Positions 3,211 through 34,820 of a DNA stretch of 43,066 nucleotides are shown piece after piece. Numbering within the stretch: the first letter of the stretch is position 1; each line of letters begins with the position of its first letter. The stretch is from Cladosporium halotolerans (taxonomy: Eukaryota). The stretch lies in contig NW_027191457.1 in assembly GCF_011745625.1 (NCBI RefSeq), positions 1,116,001 to 1,159,066 on the forward strand. The letters are read 5' to 3'. The translations under genes were made by a program, and so were the position numbers. The notes beneath the pieces are model-generated. The model was not told the DNA's origin and searched no databases. It worked only from the letters and a program-made list of their open reading frames with translations.

Positions 3211-3948
3211 ATGGCGCGCAACGCCGAGAAATCGCAATCCATGCTCTTCCGGTTCCGGGAGCAGCAAGCCGCGGACCTAGGAATCCTCGACACGACTCGC
3301 ACACGGCGGCCAAAAGCGATCAGCACGCAGGAGCACATCCCGACCTGCGAGCGGTGGCGCGGCCAAGTGCTCAAGGAGATCTCGCGCAAAGTCAGCAAAA
3401 TCCAGGACCCGGCGCTCAGCGATTACCAGATCCGCGATGTGAACGATGAGCTCAATCGCTTGTTCAAGGAGAAGTGGCAGTGGGAGATGCGAATTCGGGA
3501 GCTGGGAGGGCCCAATTACATGCGTGGCGGTGGCAGGATGCTGGATGATGAGGGGAGGGTCATTGAGGGTGGTGGGAAGGGTTATCGGTATTTTGGACGC
3601 GCGAGGGAGTTGCCGGGCGTGAAGGAGCTGTTTGAGGCAGCGACTAGGCCGAAGCAGTCCGATGAGAAGAAGACGGATACCCGCGCGGATCTCAGTCGGA
3701 GGGTGGATGCTGGTTACTATGGGTATGGGCTGGATGAGGAGGACGGCACGCTTGTTGCGTACGAGCAGAAGAAGGAGAAGGAGGCGTTTGAGACGCTGCT
3801 GGAGCAGGATGAGGACAGAATGGATGACGGCTGGGAGCCGTTGCCAGGAGACGCTGGAGATGGTGTGGAGTGGACGTTGCCCACTGCCGAGCAAGTTGAA
3901 ACCGAATTGCTCGAGCGGAGAAAGAAGAAACTGCTCGACAAGCTTTGA
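3211..3948 (+). CDS. ISY1: pre-mRNA splicing factor Isy1 (NTC/Prp19 complex)
   Basis: Characteristic MARNAEKSQSMLFRF, ISRKVSKIQDPALSDYQIRDVNDELNRL, ELGGPNY and GYRYFGRARELPGVKELF. Single exon. Confidence 0.95.
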   Translation: MARNAEKSQSMLFRFREQQAADLGILDTTRTRRPKAISTQEHIPTCERWRGQVLKEISRKVSKIQDPALSDYQIRDVNDELNRLFKEKWQWEMRIRELGGPNYMRGGGRMLDDEGRVIEGGGKGYRYFGRARELPGVKELFEAATRPKQSDEKKTDTRADLSRRVDAGYYGYGLDEEDGTLVAYEQKKEKEAFETLLEQDEDRMDDGWEPLPGDAGDGVEWTLPTAEQVETELLERRKKKLLDKL

Positions 3949-4126
3949 GGCATCACGCAATCGCTTTACGACCAAGCAACCACGTGTCACACAGATCGAA
4001 TGATCGAAGTCTCGAATATCAAAGGCTTTCTTGGGTATCTCGTCAGTCGTTTACATTCGTGGAAAAGACTCGCTCAAGCCAACACCGAAGCTATGCAAAG
4101 CAAGGAAAGCATCTACTTGGCGCTTT

Positions 4127-9937: not shown

Positions 9938-11271
9938 ATGTTCTTCAACCCTCGACTCCACCCAAGAGCTTGGCTGCTTGCCTGTGGTTGTCTCATTCTC
10001 ACTTACATCGTCGCCACACTTACTGGTGGCTTCACTCTGAGTCCCGCGAAGCGCCTCACCTCGCAGAAGGATCTGCTCAATGATGTCTTCAACGCCACCC
10101 TAGGAGTACGCATCCGGCCGAGTTGTTGCGACTGGCCAGTGCTGATCGCGATCTAGTTCCAGAAGATCCTTGTGATAGGCCTTCCATCGAGGACCGACCG
10201 TCGCGACTCGATGTCACTGGCGGCCGCGTTCTCTGGCTTGCAGGTCGAGTACGTTGACGGTGTTACTCAGGTGGACAATAAGACTCTACCGCCTGGCGGC
10301 GTCGAACGGGGTATCGATGGTGGGAGTTTGTTCGCTTGGAGAGCCCACATGAATGCTTTGCGACTGTGAGTTTTGGCCTATCAACGCAGGCATCGTCACT
10401 TCACATGACTCTCGCCTGGCATCGAACATGAAAGCATTGGCTGATTCCATCCAGCATCGTCGAGCAGAACCTCACTTCTGCTCTCGTCCTCGAAGACGAT
10501 ATCGACTGGGACATCCGGATCAAAGCCCAGATGAAGGAGTTTGCCCGAGCGGCGAGGTTACTGGTCCAGCCTTTACCGCACACACGCGAGCAGTATCTGG
10601 ATCCCACGTACCCTAGCCCTAGTGCAGACCAAGGGTACCAAAGCTTCGATGTCAACGAGCACGCCACGAGCGACCCGACCGATTCGCCTTACGGAGACAT
10701 CAGCCGCTGGGATCTGCTCTGGCTCGGGCATTGCGGCTGCCGCTTTCCCCTTGCCAGCGACCTAAACGTGCCCTTGGGCCGAGCAGTCATCGCGAACGAC
10801 GACACAGTTCCCGAACACCAGCACTTGGACATGGAGTACGGCAACGACGAGCTGCTCCGCCAATACCCGCCTCACACGCGCGTCGTCTCCCGCGCCAGAG
10901 TCAACACCTGCTCGCTCGCATACGCCATCTCCCAGCCCGGCGCCCGCCGCTTCCTCTACGAACTCGGCGTCCACAAGATGTCCGACCCCAACGACATCAT
11001 GTTCCGCTACGTCTGCGACGGCGTCGACGACCGCCAGCTCGCGACGTGTCTGACCTTCCAGCCGCAGCTGTTCCAGCACCATCGCCCGGTCGGAGCGAAG
11101 GCTGGCTTCAGCGATATTGCGGATCATGGGGATGGTTTTAACGACCGGGCTTTCACGCGGAATGTGAGGTGGAGTGTGAGGTTGAATTTCGCGAATCTTG
11201 TTAGTGGGAGTGCGAATTATACGGATAGTTTTCCGGATGGTGGGAGAAAGGTACACTTTCCGGATGGCTGA
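9938..11271 (+). CDS. glycosyltransferase family 25-like type II membrane protein
   Basis: Exons 9938-10105, 10157-10365 and 10455-11271 (GT-AG introns). N-terminal TM anchor, NATLGFQKILVIGLPSRTDRRD, and ALVLEDDIDWD (DxD motif). An in-frame ATG at 9911 is an alternative start. Confidence 0.85.
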
Positions 11272-11723
11272 GGGGAAAGGATACGATCTTTCTGGTCGTT
11301 TTCTTGATTTGTCTTTGGGTGTAGCTACTGCTTGAACGACAAGTTGTAGATATTGATCACGGACGTGTGAGTCTTCTGGACAAACGCATTGAGGTCCGAA
11401 GAGTTACTTCAACCTCCGTTATGTCTTCACCAGCAGATGTTCATGGACATTAATCAACATGGGCACGTGACAGGTACCCGATAGACGGCAATTTATTGAA
11501 CCCTGGCCTCGGCCAACCACATGGCCCGAGCTCAAGCGCAAGCTGGGGATGTCGGCGATCACTTCGAGCTTCAACACCGAGGAGAGACAAGGCGCATTGC
11601 ACTGGTGGGGACATACTGAACTCTGGTCGCACCAGCAAACTTCGTTTGAATCGAGAGGCATATTGTATCCTCGCCCTCTTCAATCATACCTCCACCTGAT
11701 CGGCCCAACACACTCTCGAAACC

Positions 11724-26824: not shown

Positions 26825-28452
26825 ATGGCTCCCCCTCCCGTGGACTATTCCCTGTATTTGGTGACGGACTCCACGCCGGCCATTTTGGGCGACAAGGACC
26901 TGGTCGCCGTGGTGAAAGCCGCCGTAGAAGGAGGTGCGCATCTTCGACTCATCGTTCCAGAACATCGTCGTCACGACTCGTGATCATCCACCCACTGACG
27001 CATCCAGGCGCAACCATTGTACAATATCGTGATAAGAAAAGCGATACCGCTCAGCTTGTCCACAATGCCCGCGAATTGCACAAAGTCACAAAGCCCGCCA
27101 ATGTCCCTCTCCTCATCAACGATCGTGTCGACGTCGCCCTGCGAGCCGGCGTCGAAGGCGTGCACGTTGGGCAAGACGATATGGACTTGAAAGGCGCCCG
27201 CGAACTCCTAGGCCCAGACGCCATCATCGGCGTGTCAACCAACACCGAAGAAGAAGCGCTCCGTGCCGCCAGGGACGGCGCCGATTACATTGGCATCGGC
27301 ACGGTCAACGCCACACAGACGAAAGACAACATCAAATCCATTATCGACACCCGAGGCGTCCAGCGTATCCTGACTACGCTGGTAGAGAACAAGCTCGGCC
27401 ATGTCAAAACCGTCTGCATTGGAGGCATGAACGCCGCAAACTCGCAGCGCATCCTTTACCAATCCGCCACGCCCGAGAAGCAACTCGATGGTGTCGCCAT
27501 CGTAAGCGCGATCATGGCCTCCACAGACGCCAGAGCCGCTTCCGAAAACCTGCGCTCTCTCATCGCTACTCCACCGCCTTTCGCACCAAACAGTAAACCT
27601 CAAGCCCTCACTCGCGACGCCCTCGTCGCCGCCGTCCCCGCCCTCATCGCCCGCACCGCCGCCAAAAAGCCCCTTTGCCACAACATGACCAACCTCGTCG
27701 TCCAGAACTTTGCCGCAAATGTCGCACTCGCTGTCGGCGCCTCCCCCATCATGTCCAACAACGGCCTCGAGGCCCCCGACCTCGCCGCGCTCGGCGGCTC
27801 CCTCGTGATCAACATGGGCACCACCACCCCGGAGATCCGCGCAAACCACCTCAAAGCTCTCGCCGCTTACAACGCCGTCGGCGGGCCCGTCGTCCTTGAT
27901 CCTGTCGGCGCTGGCGCGACGCAACAGCGCCGCGAGGGTGTTGCGGCGCTCATGGCTGGGGGTTACTTCGACCTCATCAAGGGCAACGAAGGCGAGATCC
28001 GCACCGTCTCTGGCGCCGCGGGCGTGAAGCAGCACGGCGTTGACTCCGGCGCCGCGCAGCTCTCTGATGCTCAGCGGATTGAAGTCGTCAAAACACTTGC
28101 GCGGCGCGAGCGCAATGTCGTGCTCATGACGGGCAGTACGGACGTTGTGTCGGACGGCAAGCGGACTTTCCTTGTTCGCAATGGGCATGAGTTCCTTGGC
28201 GAGATAACCGGCAGTGGCTGTACTCTGGGGACCACCATCGCCAGTGTGCTGGCGGTTGAGACGGAGGATAAGTTGCTGGCGGCTCTGGCAGGAATTCTGC
28301 TGTATGAGATTGCTGCGGAGAAGGCAGCAGAGACGGCGAGCGGGCCAGGAACGTTTATCCCTGCGTTCATCGATGCGCTGTATCATTTGCGGGAGGCGAG
28401 CAAGAGAGGCGACGGTGCGTGGGCGGAGGGCGCGAAGGTGGAGATTGTGTGA
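26825..28452 (+). CDS. THI6: bifunctional thiamine-phosphate pyrophosphorylase / hydroxyethylthiazole kinase
   Basis: ThiE part: VDYSLYLVTDS, VQYRDK, LLINDRVDVA, GVHVGQDD. ThiM part: HNMTNLVVQNFAANVALA, VVLDPVG, IKGNEGEI, ITGSGCTLG. Intron 26934-27007. Confidence 0.95.
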
Positions 28453-29371
28453 AGGGACACGAAGGAAGGTGGGTGATCGATAGGGTTACCTTAGGTAGAT
28501 ACCTCCTCCAACCGACGCTATGCGCTTGATCCGAGTTCGAATCCCGTGAAAGTCTTAAAAAGACCTTGGACTGGAAAGAGCAGGCACGTGACTGATATGT
28601 GTCGGCCCCACACGCCGCAGGAGCAGAAGTGAACGGGGGTTCGAATCCTGTGCACGTCAGTCCATTAGAATGTTGCGCTCGGTTGGCCGCAGTGCCTGCC
28701 AGCGAGTGTCAGCCTCCGCCGCATGCCATAGACATGCCATTTGGGCGTCATGAAATGACTATGACCATCGATCAAGACCGCCATCGATCACTGTTGCGTG
28801 CTGCGGTGCCATCTGTGATTTTTCGAGACACCACTGCGGCAACATGTGGCTCGAATTGCGCTGTTGAATCTTAGCTTGTGAGATGCGCATTTTGATGGGG
28901 ATCTTCCTGGAATCTAACGCGCCCGCAGCTATGAATATGTATTCGCATCTCTTGCTGCTCCCACTAGCTTTTGACCATGATACTGTAACGTCGTGGTGAC
29001 TTCTATCGCGGCGAGACAGGTTTTGGCGTAGTCCACACTGGGTTGGTTTATGAGACTTGGTCTTCTGACGACCTGTGCACAGGCTTCCAGAGGCCGTTGT
29101 ATTGAGAGCAGCAGGAAGAGAAGCATGGTTCAAATTCGGGGTTTGGCAGTCTAACTTCTTCAATGTATCTTATCTGAGCGATCCGAATGTCTGGCCATCG
29201 AGTGCCGCGATCTCTCATCAGGGACTGCACAAAAAGCAAGCTATTGTCGAATATCGCAACGCCGTGATATTAACTCATTTATTGAGGCACGACAAAAACA
29301 CAACCCACCACTCGGCGATGAAAGCAAAGCAGACAGTAAAAAGAAATAGCTTGAATTGACCACAAAAAGTG

Positions 29372-29651
29372 CAAAAACCTAAGTCCGGTCTGACCGCGCG
29401 TGCCGTATACTTAGGGAAAACGGGCGAACCCATTTTATTATAGCTGCCCTGGTCGTCCACGGAACGGCGTCCCGCCCGCGCGCTGCAAGGTGCTAAATCC
29501 AGACCGTTTCCGCCTCATCGTGCGCTCGTTAGTCTAGCGGCGAACATGGCGGGCTGGAGTGGGGTCGGCGTCCCGATTGCCCAAAGCAGTCCCGCGCGTT
29601 CCCAACTAGACTAAGGAACCCACGATGAGCCGGGAGAGAAAGGATGACGGT
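29372..29651 (-). ncRNA. unassigned structured non-coding RNA candidate (~280 nt)
   Basis: Long 5' hairpin plus a 3' domain of nested stems, a UUCG-tetraloop hairpin and a potential pseudoknot. T-runs at the 3' end; TATA-like and E-box motifs upstream. No matching family recognised. Confidence 0.6.
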
Positions 29652-29664
29652 GAGGGGCGTAACA

Positions 29665-29760
29665 GCTTTAAATCAGTTCATTGCAGCGGCTGCTCCCCTT
29701 AGCGCGGGCACGTGACGCGCTCACTGGGCAGCTACGCCTTCTTGCGAGGGCGTCACGTGA
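29665..29760 (-). promoter_or_regulatory. putative promoter of the ncRNA candidate: TTTAAA box and two GTCACGTG E-boxes
   Basis: TTTAAA at 29667-29672, CACGTGAC at 29709-29716 and GTCACGTGA at 29752-29760. Confidence 0.4.
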
Positions 29761-30625
29761 GACACTGAGCTGGTAAGCTTTCCATGTCGCTATTTTCTGC
29801 GCGACCGTATGGCGCGAAAGTGGTGCACCCGCGTGGATGGAAGAGGGTCGCATGACTGGTTTGTCGGCCTTGTGATCCACGGGTTGGCTCTGCCGCAAAA
29901 TGAGGGCCGCGTAGGTCCGTGGAGGATAAATGGTACATAACATCCTTGCCAGGATAGCTTCAGCAGCGAGAGACTTTTCTTGGTTTGTGGGCGAGTGCAA
30001 AGGTTCCATCCTTATGAACAGGGCTTGTGCAATTGTGAGCCCAGGTGCAATGCTAAGGCAATTTGGGCCGCTTCGGCAGGGGCTAGGACACTGGTTTCAA
30101 TCTCAACACTCTCAATTAGTAGTGAGGCTCACCGAAGAAGTCGCAAGGCAAGAATTGAGAACCATGCAAGAGGAAGTGATCTCAACCCTGCGCAAGGGAG
30201 GCACTCGACTGCGCTCACGCCCGCAATGGCACGAATGGTGACGCTGGAGAGCGCACTGCCATTGAGTCGGCATCATACAAGCTTCTTCAGAAATCAAACT
30301 CGTGCGATTAGAACTTCATTCTGTGCAAATGACCCGGATGGCTTGTGAGAGTGAAGAGGTGAGGTCTGGCAGCGGCTCCGCGCGCAGGGCCATCCCCAAA
30401 CTTTGGAAGTGGGGCGAAATTCAGAGACCACCGAGCACCAGAGCCGCCCGCCCCGCCAAGCGAAGAGCGCCAGCTACACATCATCCCAGCGCCCAGCGAT
30501 TGCTATAGCCCACGTGAGCACTTCGATACTTGCTCGCGAGTAAGTGGGCAGCTCTACCGCGCCGTATCTGTCCTCCCACGGCAACACACTCGCATACGGC
30601 ATCGTCCACTCCCCGCGAATTCACA

Positions 30626-32557
30626 ATGGCTGCAGCGCTAGCCTCGCTCCTCAAGAAAACCCACATCGAGGATCACGATGAGATCCTGCGCTCTGCTGAA
30701 GCTGCTCTCAAGCAATCCAAGGGCGATCTTGAAACGCAGCATGTCAAGGCTGTCGCCCTGCTGAACCTGGACCGCTATTCGGACGCAGTCACCGCAATCG
30801 AAGCCGGCGGGGACAAGCTGAAAGAGAAGGTGCGCTTGGAATACGCTTACGCTCTGTACAAGTCAGGCAAGTCGGCAGAGGCGGCAGAGATTGCAGCGAA
30901 GGGCTCTCAGCGCGGTTACAGCCATGTGGAGGCCCAGGCACGGTACAGAACCGAGGACTTCCAGCGGGCGGCGGAGCTGTACAAGCAGTTGAGCGCTAAT
31001 CAGGCTCAAGATGCCGAAGCAGACCTCAGGGTAAATGCTTCGGCGGTTGATGCGCAACTGGAGTGGTCAGGGAAGGGCGCGATGGTTCAAAACAAGAGAG
31101 CTGCGAGGGGAGATTTGGAGGCATTCGAGACGGCGTACAACGCTGCTTGCGGAAGCATAGCGAGAGGGGAGCTGGGGCAAGGTGAGGTGCTACTGAAGCG
31201 TGCGCGCGACCTCTGTGAGTCGGTGGAGGACATGACCGAAGAGGATAAGGAGACGGAATTGCTACCGATTGCGGTGCAGCAGATTTACGTTCTGACCAGG
31301 TTGGGAAGGCACGAAGAGGCGAACAAACTGGGCCAGAGCATTGGCGAAAAGACTTTTCCCGATCAAAGCTCGAAACTCATCGCAAGGGTGAACAGCATTG
31401 CAGCAGCTGGTGTACCAAGCAACCCTTTCCTCGCCCAGAGACTGCTGGCCTTTGACCTTGAGACGCTGAAACCCGACTATCCTTTCGCCTACCAAACTGC
31501 TGCCCTCGAGCAGAACAGCTCCGCCACCGAACTGCTAGCCATGAAGTTCGGCGGTGTCGTCGACTCCACATCGAAAGCTCTCTCGAAGCAGGATGGTGCT
31601 ACCCTTGACAGGCGGCTCAACGGTCTCTCTGTTGTCAATGCTGCAGCGCATGCCCGGAACAAAGTGGGCAAAGATGCCCTCAAACATTTCTTGCCTTTGC
31701 TGGAGAAGCGTCCGAACGATATTGGCCTTATCCTCACAATTGTCCAATCTTATGTACAGATTGGAAACCTCACCTCAGCAACTGTGCACTTGGAGAAGTT
31801 CCTCACGAAGCTCGAGAATTCTGCAAACGGCAGCGATCTGGACATGCGATTCGCCCCTGGTTTGGTAGGAACCCTTGTTAGCCTTTACAACAGCCAAAGC
31901 AGGCGTGAGCCTGCCCGATCTGCACTTGGAAAAGCCGCGACGCATTGGCGCACTCGATCAAACCATTCTCGCGGCGTGATACACTTGCTCAAAGCAGCGG
32001 GAAGCTCCTTGACCGAGTCCCAAGACCCCTCACATCAAACGCTCGCTCGCGACATATTCCAAGACCTGCACGACAAAGAGCCCTCGGACCGCTACGCCGC
32101 CGCAGGCCTCCTCGCCGCATCGCCCGCGACCGCTAAATCCTCCGACCTTTCATCCCTACAACCAGTCGATCAGCTCGTCAAAGATATTGACGTCGAAGCT
32201 CTCGAAGCCGCCGGCATCGCGCAGCCTCCGGCGTCAGTCATTGCCGCAGCAACACGTAAGCGCCCCGCAGAAGAGCAGCAAACAAAGCCCAAGAAGCACA
32301 AGAAGCTATGCAAGAGTAAGATGCCTAAAGACTACGATCCGAATCGCACTCCCGATCCCGAGCGCTGGTTACCTCTCCGCGATCGCAGCTCGTACAAGCC
32401 AAAAGGGAAAAAGGGGAAGGCGAAGCAGGCGATGATGGCACAGGGCGCCGTCAGTGAGGATAGTAGGCCTGCGACACCGGGCGCGGATGTCGTAAAGAGC
32501 AAGCAGCAGCAACAAGGCGGTGGCAAAAAGAAGAAGGGCAAGGGGAATAAGTGGTAA
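30626..32557 (+). CDS. SRP72: signal recognition particle subunit SRP72
   Basis: N-terminal TPRs (HVKAVALLNLDRY, LEYAYALYK, FETAYNAAC) and the SRP72 RNA-binding signature PDPERWLPLRDRS. Confidence 0.95.
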   Translation: MAAALASLLKKTHIEDHDEILRSAEAALKQSKGDLETQHVKAVALLNLDRYSDAVTAIEAGGDKLKEKVRLEYAYALYKSGKSAEAAEIAAKGSQRGYSHVEAQARYRTEDFQRAAELYKQLSANQAQDAEADLRVNASAVDAQLEWSGKGAMVQNKRAARGDLEAFETAYNAACGSIARGELGQGEVLLKRARDLCESVEDMTEEDKETELLPIAVQQIYVLTRLGRHEEANKLGQSIGEKTFPDQSSKLIARVNSIAAAGVPSNPFLAQRLLAFDLETLKPDYPFAYQTAALEQNSSATELLAMKFGGVVDSTSKALSKQDGATLDRRLNGLSVVNAAAHARNKVGKDALKHFLPLLEKRPNDIGLILTIVQSYVQIGNLTSATVHLEKFLTKLENSANGSDLDMRFAPGLVGTLVSLYNSQSRREPARSALGKAATHWRTRSNHSRGVIHLLKAAGSSLTESQDPSHQTLARDIFQDLHDKEPSDRYAAAGLLAASPATAKSSDLSSLQPVDQLVKDIDVEALEAAGIAQPPASVIAAATRKRPAEEQQTKPKKHKKLCKSKMPKDYDPNRTPDPERWLPLRDRSSYKPKGKKGKAKQAMMAQGAVSEDSRPATPGADVVKSKQQQQGGGKKKKGKGNKW

Positions 32558-34726: not shown

Positions 34727-34820
34727 GCATTGGTGGTTTAGTGGTAAAATTGGCCGTTGCCATCGAGATATTCTACTTCCGATTGTCGGCCAGCCCCGGG
34801 TTCGATTCCCGGCCGATGCA
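34727..34820 (+). tRNA. tRNA-Gly(GCC) with a 23-nt intron (34763-34785)
   Basis: Acceptor stem GCATTGG/CCGATGC plus A, D-arm TGGTTTAGTGGTAAAA, anticodon stem GGCCG/CGGCC with GCC at 34759-34761, T-arm CCGGGTTCGATTCCCGG, followed by TTTT. Confidence 0.97.

Follow-up and report, generated by a model that had tools for sequence, protein, structure and literature searches.

Locus and parts of the element

The window analysed here is a stretch of 43,066 nucleotides (nt) from Cladosporium halotolerans (GCF_011745625.1, NW_027191457.1, positions 1,116,001-1,159,066, forward strand), and our subject is a candidate structured RNA of 280 nt encoded at positions 29372-29651 of this window. The element lies in a 2.2-kb gap between a THI6-like open reading frame (ORF), which ends at 28452, and SRP72, whose ATG is at 30626; it is read from the minus strand, opposite to both neighbours, and stands head-to-head with SRP72. 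Comparison of the SRP72 protein places the organism within the Dothideomycetes, the closest named relatives reaching only 63% identity (Oleoguttula mirabilis, Teratosphaeriaceae, Mycosphaerellales). The parts of the element, all on the minus strand, are as follows; "five copies" refers to the window copy and the four homologues described below.

29667-29672, minus: TATA-like box TTTAAA, about 25-31 nt 5' of the predicted start
29373-29648, minus: predicted RNA of about 275 nt, with its start placed at 29648-29641 from the TATA distance and its end within the first T5 run
29621-29629, minus: 5' strand of P1, CUCAUCGUG, the outer helix of the long 5' hairpin; exact complement of 29514-29522
29602-29613, minus: A-box-like TAGTCTAGTTGG, on the 5' strand of H1 (29605-29614 with 29529-29538)
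29565-29576, minus: tip of the 5' hairpin, UCGG-GACG-CCGA, with the first copy of a repeated 10-mer
29514-29522, minus: 3' strand of P1, CACGAUGAG, pairing with 29621-29629
29441-29495, minus: H2 as drawn in a constrained fold (UAGC/GCUA, CCUUG/CAGGG, CGCGGG/UCCGUG, CGG-GACG-CCG), with the second copy of the 10-mer
29433-29439, minus: AAUAAAA, invariant in 5/5 copies, its AAAA forming the base of H3
29417-29436, minus: H3, AAAAUGGG-UUCG-CCCGUUUU, with the base AAAAY/RUUUU retained in 5/5 copies
29413-29421, minus: GUUUUCCCU, invariant in 5/5 copies, linking H3 to H4 via a single unpaired C
29378-29415, minus: H4, with CCUAAGU/ACUUAGG as its closing stem; CCU/AGG at the bottom is the same in every copy, and the pairs that follow vary yet stay paired
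29373-29377, minus: first T5 run, terminator-like; UAGGUUUUUGC is unchanged in 5/5 copies
29363-29367, minus: second T5 run, a backup terminator-like signal retained in 4/5 copies

The 10-mer, CGGCGTCCCG, occurs twice (plus strand, 29465 and 29566). This repeat, the TTTAAA, the two T5 runs and two CACGTG boxes (GTCACGTG at 29752 and its reverse complement CACGTGAC at 29709) are all where an earlier reading of the same DNA, hereafter the original prediction, had placed them.

Folding of the window copy

For the minus strand of the 280 nt the folding energy is -126.1 kcal/mol, compared with -103.1 on average for its shuffles (z -4.47, 0/200 shuffles as good), while the plus strand folds more weakly (z -3.01, 2/200 shuffles as good); the structure therefore exceeds chance and favours the minus strand, in agreement with the original prediction. 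All seven stem pairs listed in that prediction are exact reverse complements with the exception of the 8-bp hairpin (29417-29424 with 29429-29436), which is present with one plus-strand C.A that becomes a G.U on the minus strand. Two elements of the proposed architecture find no backing in the relatives. The three nested stems assigned to a "domain 2" are without counterpart in the four homologues, and the pairing of CCUAAGU with ACUUAGG, taken for a pseudoknot, makes better sense as the helix that closes a regular 3' hairpin, H4. Forcing this stem in the window copy yields four consecutive hairpins at -124.1 kcal/mol, versus -125.4 kcal/mol for the minimum free energy (MFE) fold, that is at a cost of 1.3 kcal/mol.

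Homologues upstream of SRP72

Homologues were sought in 72 loci, namely metagenome contigs with an SRP72 alignment, together with the window. With the element as query, blastn matched only 25-28 nt around the T runs in L001 and L005; the matches lie upstream of SRP72 and are oriented opposite to it. These two related Dothideomycete metagenome contigs hold four full homologues, two in tandem on each, which sit 1.1-2.5 kb upstream of SRP72:

L001a, 3759-3518, minus strand, opposite to SRP72: homologue
L001b, 4859-4618, minus strand, opposite to SRP72: homologue
L005a, 4216-3958, minus strand, opposite to SRP72: homologue
L005b, 4874-4623, minus strand, opposite to SRP72: homologue

A covariance model (CM), R1, was built from these four relatives alone and run on 19 of the 72 loci and on the window. 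It scores its own four copies at 209-230 bits, finds no copy in the 17 other loci given to it and, with filters off, gives the window element its best score in the 43 kb, 12.8 bits (E 0.018) for 29367-29514 on the minus strand, the next match reaching 4.7 bits. A profile hidden Markov model (HMM) of the four relatives likewise ranks the window element first in the 43-kb window (E 0.023). No further copies were found by nhmmer across all 72 loci and the window, nor in a scan for A and B boxes. THI6 occurs in none of the 72 loci, which rules it out as shared context and limits synteny to the SRP72 side, in three organisms.

Between the two contigs, the b copies are 75.9% identical and the a copies 65.7%, and a and b copies are 59.5-65.0% identical to each other. 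Judging from the sequences, the tandem duplication seems to be older than the divergence of the L001 and L005 organisms, both copies having kept the fold.

A pattern scan with GGTTTTCCCT..TAGGTTTTTGC picked out 19 stretches of prokaryote DNA, from genomes, and 6 of viral contigs, which were rejected as chance matches, with CM scores of at most 14 bits that extend only across the pattern itself. As a separate observation, this pattern with the same 48-nt spacing is found several times in two Lachnospiraceae-type assemblies (L074, L080, L082, L083, L085), some of the matches being on very short contigs and scoring at most 11 bits with the CM; this looks like a repeated bacterial element unrelated to the fungal RNA.

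Known families were searched using cmscan against Rfam 15, at gathering scores and at E<=10, and using ARAGORN. At gathering scores the whole window gives only a tRNA at 34727-34820, and ARAGORN reports 0 genes in the window. At E<=10 the element itself has no match, those nearby being CRISPR-DR28 at 29730-29753 (E 3.2) and a further two at 30367-30555. In the homologues, the matches below threshold number 6 and 2, the best at E 0.49 and none plausible, and neither the element nor the homologues have an Rfam tRNA match at E<=10. The element and its four homologues thus fall in no Rfam 15 family, as the original prediction had anticipated.

Common anatomy and covariation

The copies follow a single order of parts: a TATA-like box, an A box in the long 5' hairpin, a B box (relatives only), AAUAAAA, H3, GUUUUCCCU, H4, UAGG, T5 and a backup T run. 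The TATA-like box is present upstream of all five copies, accompanied by a conserved upstream block of the form AGG-nAAC-CTTTATAAT, and it is from this box that the start site is deduced; in the relatives it reads TATAAT, TATTAA, TATTTA or CATATT and lies 27-34 nt before P1, and in the window it lies 43 nt before P1 and 38 nt before the extended stem. P1 uses the first nucleotides of the predicted RNA and occupies the same place with different sequences among the copies (CACCAAUCAA/UUGGUUGGUG in L001a, CACCAACCAC/GUGGUUGGUG in L005a, CAUC..CGACUCG/CGAGUCG..GAUG in L005b). The A box TRGYCTAGTGG is on the 5' strand of H1 in 4/4 relatives, TAGTCTAGTTGG being its counterpart in the window, and the relatives' H2 starts inside the B box GGTTCGAWTC (GGTTCGATTCC in L005b). 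The G-GACG-C loop, which is the tip within the 10-mer of the window copy, recurs in H1 of L001a, in H4 of L005a and in H2 of L001b and L005b. Furthermore, the strings AAUAAAA, GUUUUCCCU, UAGG and UUUUUGC are invariant, and every copy ends in ..UAGGUUUUU. A kink-turn (k-turn) is made of a C-stem, a 3-nt bulge, tandem G.A/A.G pairs and an NC-stem; by inspection, the internal loop of the relatives' H3 fits this rule (GGA-GAG[loop]CUC-NNN-GA-N-GG, with GA[GCAA]UC in L005a).

In an alignment of the four relatives fitted to the model and comprising 49 pairs, 94.8% of the pair cells hold standard pairs, as compared with 33-51% when the partners are slid by 1-3 columns. Double-sided changes affect 8 pairs (11 cells), against at most 4 with slid partners, and the covariation score of 0.296 is reached by 0/500 shuffles. 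About 23 cells of the pair table, by tally, are G.U and are compatible only with this strand. The relatives' own folds have z-scores of -6.98, -5.92, -4.39 and -3.85, each with 0/200 shuffles as good, and their separate MFE folds contain the long 5' hairpin and H2 in 4/4 cases and H4 in 3/4. The element thus has homologues with a conserved, covarying structure, in support of the original prediction.

Contigs of the window's close relatives, about 97% identical, carry four substitutions inside the RNA, and none of them breaks a pair: 29384/29409 changes from U-A to C-G in H4 and is compensatory, 29421 changes a G.U to an A-U in H3, and 29579 is unpaired. A more distant relative has 5 substitutions in pairs; 4 have their partner in an unaligned 100-nt stretch, and the substitution at 29591 loses its pair, the aligned partner at 29553 being unchanged.

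A tRNA-type gene layout

The A box TRGYNNA(N)NGG is matched in 4/5 copies, the window having a long-D-loop variant (TAGTCTAGTTGG, 29613-29602). The strict B box GGTTCGANNC is present in 3/5 copies, with GGTTCGAGTAG in L005a, and GGTTCG in 5/5; in the window, no B-box-like string is found at the homologous place and the only one, GGGTTCGCCC, is within H3. TTTTTGC follows in 5/5 copies and a second T5 in 4/5.

A tRNA-Gly(GCC) gene is located 5 kb from the element (34727-34820, plus strand), with a 25-nt insertion after the anticodon region that is an intron by position. This gene was matched by Rfam at 47.7 bits and missed by ARAGORN in bacterial mode. Its TATA-like sequence, TATCTATAT, stands about 30 nt upstream; A and B boxes are present, and the gene ends at TTTTG, after which TTTTG comes once more. 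The element and its relatives are laid out alike, with a TATA-like box ~30 nt upstream, an A box and a T run with a backup, the B box being confined to the relatives. Such an arrangement is that of a type-2 promoter of RNA polymerase III (Pol III) with an upstream TATA, as in fission yeast. Unlike a tRNA gene, the element has no cloverleaf, its product would be of 210-275 nt, its A and B boxes are buried in long stems and an extra 3' module of ~110 nt is present.

The similarity to tRNA-Gly extends to the sequence. The best, weak, match of the relatives' 5' HMM in the window is the A-box region of the tRNA-Gly gene; L005b agrees with the tRNA-Gly 5' half at 16/18 positions (1/300 shuffles as good) and L001b with its B box at 10/10 positions (14/300 shuffles as good). 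On this resemblance, the family probably descends from a tRNA gene.

Interpretation as a probable Pol III gene

We favour, with a probability of roughly 0.6, the reading in which the element specifies an independent Pol III transcript of ~275 nt that descends from a tRNA gene and belongs to a family outside Rfam 15. It would be a minus-strand non-coding RNA (ncRNA) gene, head-to-head with SRP72 and built as a tRNA-type Pol III gene, whose product would run from about 29648 to 29374 and comprise the 5' hairpin (P1 and H1) with the A box, then H2, H3, H4 and a 3' oligo-U tail. The ancestral tRNA promoter blocks would have been absorbed into stems, the relatives' A-box and B-box blocks resembling those of tRNA-Gly. 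Such an RNA may act as a stable ribonucleoprotein (RNP) scaffold, in which the 3' U tail could bind La or Lsm-type proteins and the k-turn of the relatives' H3 a protein of the L7Ae/Snu13 type, while the invariant AAUAAAA, GUUUUCCCU and UAGGUUUUU might form a compact junction with H3 stacked on H4. The original prediction of an independent ncRNA of an undescribed fungal class is supported in part, by the lack of an Rfam match, by the homologues, and by promoter-like and terminator-like signals of its own; "fungal class" is too wide a term for what is seen in three organisms.

An extended form of this reading, which we regard as a long shot, would make the element the founder of a new class of RNP RNAs that fungi transcribe by Pol III, a tRNA-born scaffold with a regulatory role comparable to that of 7SK, Y or BC1 RNAs and with a triplex at its 3' end. 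In this form H3 and H4 would be stacked and the oligo-U tail would run parallel to the AAAA strand in the major groove (A4.U4), giving U.A-U triples, and the resulting U.A-U triple helix would allow a Pol III 3' end to protect itself.

To our knowledge, very few fungal Pol III products are known beyond tRNA, 5S, U6, RNase P RNA, SRP RNA and snR52, and no description of such an RNA or of its motifs was found in the accessible portions of the literature consulted. If the favoured reading is true, fungal biology would gain a new RNP, with a conserved, structured, tRNA-derived Pol III RNA of melanised Dothideomycetes, and this RNA would illustrate how a tRNA gene is remodelled to a new RNA with its promoter blocks kept within stems. 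If the RNA is dispensable or limited to few species, its interest would be mainly evolutionary.

Several observations weigh against a Pol III gene of this kind. The family amounts to 5 sequences from 3 organisms only, and the covariation test, with so few sequences and a structure-fitted alignment, is underpowered. At default CM filters R1 missed the window copy, which has neither the k-turn (its H3 is a simple stem of 8 bp capped by UUCG) nor a B box at the homologous place. The SRP72 loci L002, L008, L009 and L010 (75-76% protein identity) are devoid of a copy; these four share no upstream DNA with L001. The identity between orthologues is about that of the flanks (65.7% vs 66.4% for a-a, 75.9% vs 74.7% for b-b). 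Moreover, the invariant GGUUUUCC holds an internal T4 (GGTTTTCC) and the local tRNA-Gly gene appears to end at a T4, and Pol III might therefore stop before H4. Finally, a contig from an RNA-labelled library (29597-29767) bridges the predicted start and the TATA box, and blocks downstream of the T runs are common to the paralogues (ACTNATT, ATGCAGC and TTGGTTGCYAGTGTTTTGCGCAAG), of which the Pol III reading gives no account.

Comparison with characterised Pol III RNAs

Rodent BC1 and 4.5SI are lineage-specific Pol III ncRNAs that arose from tRNA genes or from short interspersed elements (SINEs). The element resembles them in its internal A box, with a B box in the relatives, upstream TATA-like box, narrow range, probable tRNA ancestry and small structured product; it differs in having no sequence relation to them, in being fungal with four hairpins, and in that no SINE family was seen in the DNA searched. 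4.5SI and 4.5SH genes are reported to combine A and B boxes with a TATA-like box at -31/-24 (PMC10137851).

As for 7SK, the likeness is one of outline only: the gene is Pol III-like, three shorter hairpins come after a long one at the 5' end, and the last of them stands directly before the oligo-U. 7SK is a Pol III transcript of about 330 nt with four stem-loops and a 3' UUUU bound by LARP7, and is made from an external promoter that has no A or B box; the element has no Rfam 7SK match. 7SK and its partner HEXIM are not known outside animals. In yeast SNR52 and RPR1, which are Pol III genes, the A and B boxes are in a 5' leader before the functional RNA. The element likewise has tRNA-like promoter blocks 5' of an unrelated structured module; unlike in these genes, that module has no terminal C/D boxes or RNase P core, and there is no hint of 5' removal.

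Alternative explanations

The alternative that survives best, itself unlikely, is that of a longer RNA continuing past the T runs, either a Sm-class-like transcript of RNA polymerase II (Pol II) or a Pol III read-through precursor, in which GGUUUUUG would be a single-stranded Sm/Lsm-like protein site between H4 and a further 3' part. The invariance of UAGGUUUUUGC, which exceeds the needs of a bare terminator, speaks for it, as does the stretch of ~100 nt past the T runs that is common to the paralogues. On the extended units, moreover, RNAalifold draws two further helices, UUGCA/UGCAG as a 3' hairpin, in which one pair is changed on both sides, and GCGCAAA/UUUGCGC as a stem in 3/4 sequences. 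However, the 111 nt past the T runs have neither a common fold nor an excess of folding stability in any of the five copies (z +1.18, +0.19, +0.63, -1.22 and +0.98), and because they fold no better than shuffles the structured part is taken to end at the T runs. In addition, GCGCAAA, being downstream of the TATA box but still ahead of the expected start, should be outside the RNA, the window has no ATGCAGC, the Sm consensus AU4-6G is found in 0/5 copies, and a Pol II transcript would give no reason for perfect A and B boxes. The 3' extension hairpin and the GCGCAAA/UUUGCGC terminal stem were rejected, the downstream DNA showing no excess stability and GCGCAAA being upstream of the expected start. 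The paralogous stretches themselves are at 3425-3518 and 4525-4618 in L001 and at 3865-3958 and 4530-4623 in L005 (minus strand), and it is the TTGGTTGCYAGTGTTTTGCGCAAG block that repeats, inverted, as the GCGCAAA between the TATA box and the predicted start.

Quite unlikely, in our estimate, is a decaying tRNA-derived repeat, that is a SINE-like element or a tandem array of tRNA pseudogenes, rich in hairpins and with no cellular function. The A and B boxes, the similarity to tRNA-Gly and the tandem duplication in L001 and L005 are what such a repeat would bring, and the absence of a copy beside SRP72 in four close relatives and a sequence divergence equal to that of the flanks also fit. On the other hand, the relatives' helices have been kept through 8 double changes, with 94.8% of cells paired at 60-76% identity, and the element has the same place and orientation beside SRP72 in three organisms. 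Neither an A-rich nor a simple-repeat tail is present, and the only 5 copies in the 72 loci and the window are all beside SRP72.

It is judged very unlikely that the element is the structured 3' region of a longer RNA made by Pol II, unannotated, non-coding or with a small ORF, and starting near 29980. This alternative arises from one RNA-labelled metatranscriptome run, which contains contigs identical to the window over 29381-29609, 29597-29767 and 29791-29979, three pieces of which one crosses the predicted promoter. Only contigs are available from this run, at a depth of 3-5, and DNA may be present in it; three other runs, likewise consisting of contigs, look like DNA of relatives. In the RNA-labelled run 29000-29380 and the DNA beyond 29979 are uncovered, a lack of cover that carries no weight for placing the 3' end. 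These contigs are a sign of presence in an RNA library rather than of a defined transcript. The invariant AAUAAA could serve as a poly(A) signal and the two CACGTG boxes lie upstream, but H3 and H4, which are structurally conserved, are past AAUAAA, the paralogues share the unit from TATA to T run and not the region upstream of TATA, and Pfam gives nothing above threshold for the ORFs of that region (113 aa and 103 aa). As an observation on the same library, its contigs reach some 330 nt beyond the predicted start on the upstream side, over the TATA-like box and the two CACGTG boxes, and region 29597-29979 may be an unannotated transcript.

The last alternative calls for the signatures of known RNAs, which were scanned in the five copies as consensus motif strings. 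The RNase P/MRP strings for CR-I and CR-V (GNAANNUCNGNG and GAAAGUCCCC with up to 2 mismatches, and ACNNNANNCNGNNUA) are in 0/5 copies, and so are the GNAR loop with AGCA of SRP helix 8 and the UGUAAU Alu motif, no SRP model matching at E<=10; the consensus fold consists of four consecutive hairpins and has no enclosing long-range helix such as SRP helix 5. Of the motifs of the spliceosomal RNAs U1, U2, U5 and U6 and of U3, ACUUACC, GUAGUA, CCUUUUAC, ACAGAGA, the U3 box A and the Sm site AU4-6G are each in 0/5 copies. Among the boxes of small nucleolar RNAs (snoRNAs), RUGAUGA is found in 1/5 copies, near the 3' end, and CUGA in 2/5, not terminal. A telomerase template of at least 8 nt complementary to TTAGGG, a telomere repeat assumed for the host, is in 0/5 copies. 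The original prediction, which had found no diagnostic motif of U1, U2, U5, U6, U3, SRP RNA, RNase P, RNase MRP or a telomerase template, holds for all five copies. A single CCCTAACCC-like site, with 1 mismatch, is present in the window, at 10611.

One lead towards RNase P/MRP was followed and rejected. A P4-like pairing is possible between a GGAAAC..GGUCUG string and a CAGACC further on (GGAAACGGUCUGG/CAGACCGGACUUA), though in the window copy alone; this pairing is in none of the four homologues, no CR-I or CR-V consensus is found in the 5 copies, and the long-range P1/P2 helices of RNase P/MRP are missing. A very divergent form of a known essential RNA missed by Rfam (RNase P/MRP, SRP RNA, a small nuclear RNA or a snoRNA) is thus highly improbable: the resemblance of the window's GGAAACGGUCUGG ... 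CAGACCGGACUUA to the CR-I/CR-V (P4) strings of RNase P, that of the relatives' k-turn to C'/D' or U3 B/C motifs, and the proximity of SRP72 have to be set against P4-like strings in 0/4 homologues, CR-I, CR-V, SRP helix-8, U1, U2, U5, U6, U3 and telomere-template motifs in 0/5 copies, the absence of a terminal 5'/3' helix, of a long helix 5 and of a terminal C/D or ACA box, and Rfam searches with no match on the element at E<=10 and none plausible on the homologues.

Other features of the intergenic region

In the 3' flank of THI6, on the plus strand, two B-box-like strings, GAGTTCGAATCCCG (28525-28545) and GGGGTTCGAATCCTG (28632-28652), come after GGGTTACCTT, a sequence similar to the block found upstream of the L001 RNA genes. 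No tRNA, Rfam, HMM or CM match falls on these strings, which may be relics of tRNA-type genes or extra TFIIIC sites; a second copy of the element at 28480-28700 (plus strand), considered on account of GGGTTACCTT and of the B-box-like GGTTCGAATCC occurring twice, was dropped, as the HMM and CM searches give it no support.

Upstream of the element, the ORFs 29668-30009 (minus, 113 aa) and 29930-30241 (plus, 103 aa) contain no Pfam family above threshold. CACGTG-type boxes (GTCACGTG/CACGTGAC) are not seen upstream of the L001 and L005 copies. The window contains four of them, at 11464, 28585, 29709 and 29752, which as palindrome-type boxes resemble sites of the Cbf1/Pho4 type, and the latter two form an inverted pair located 37-87 nt upstream of the TATA-like box of the RNA gene.

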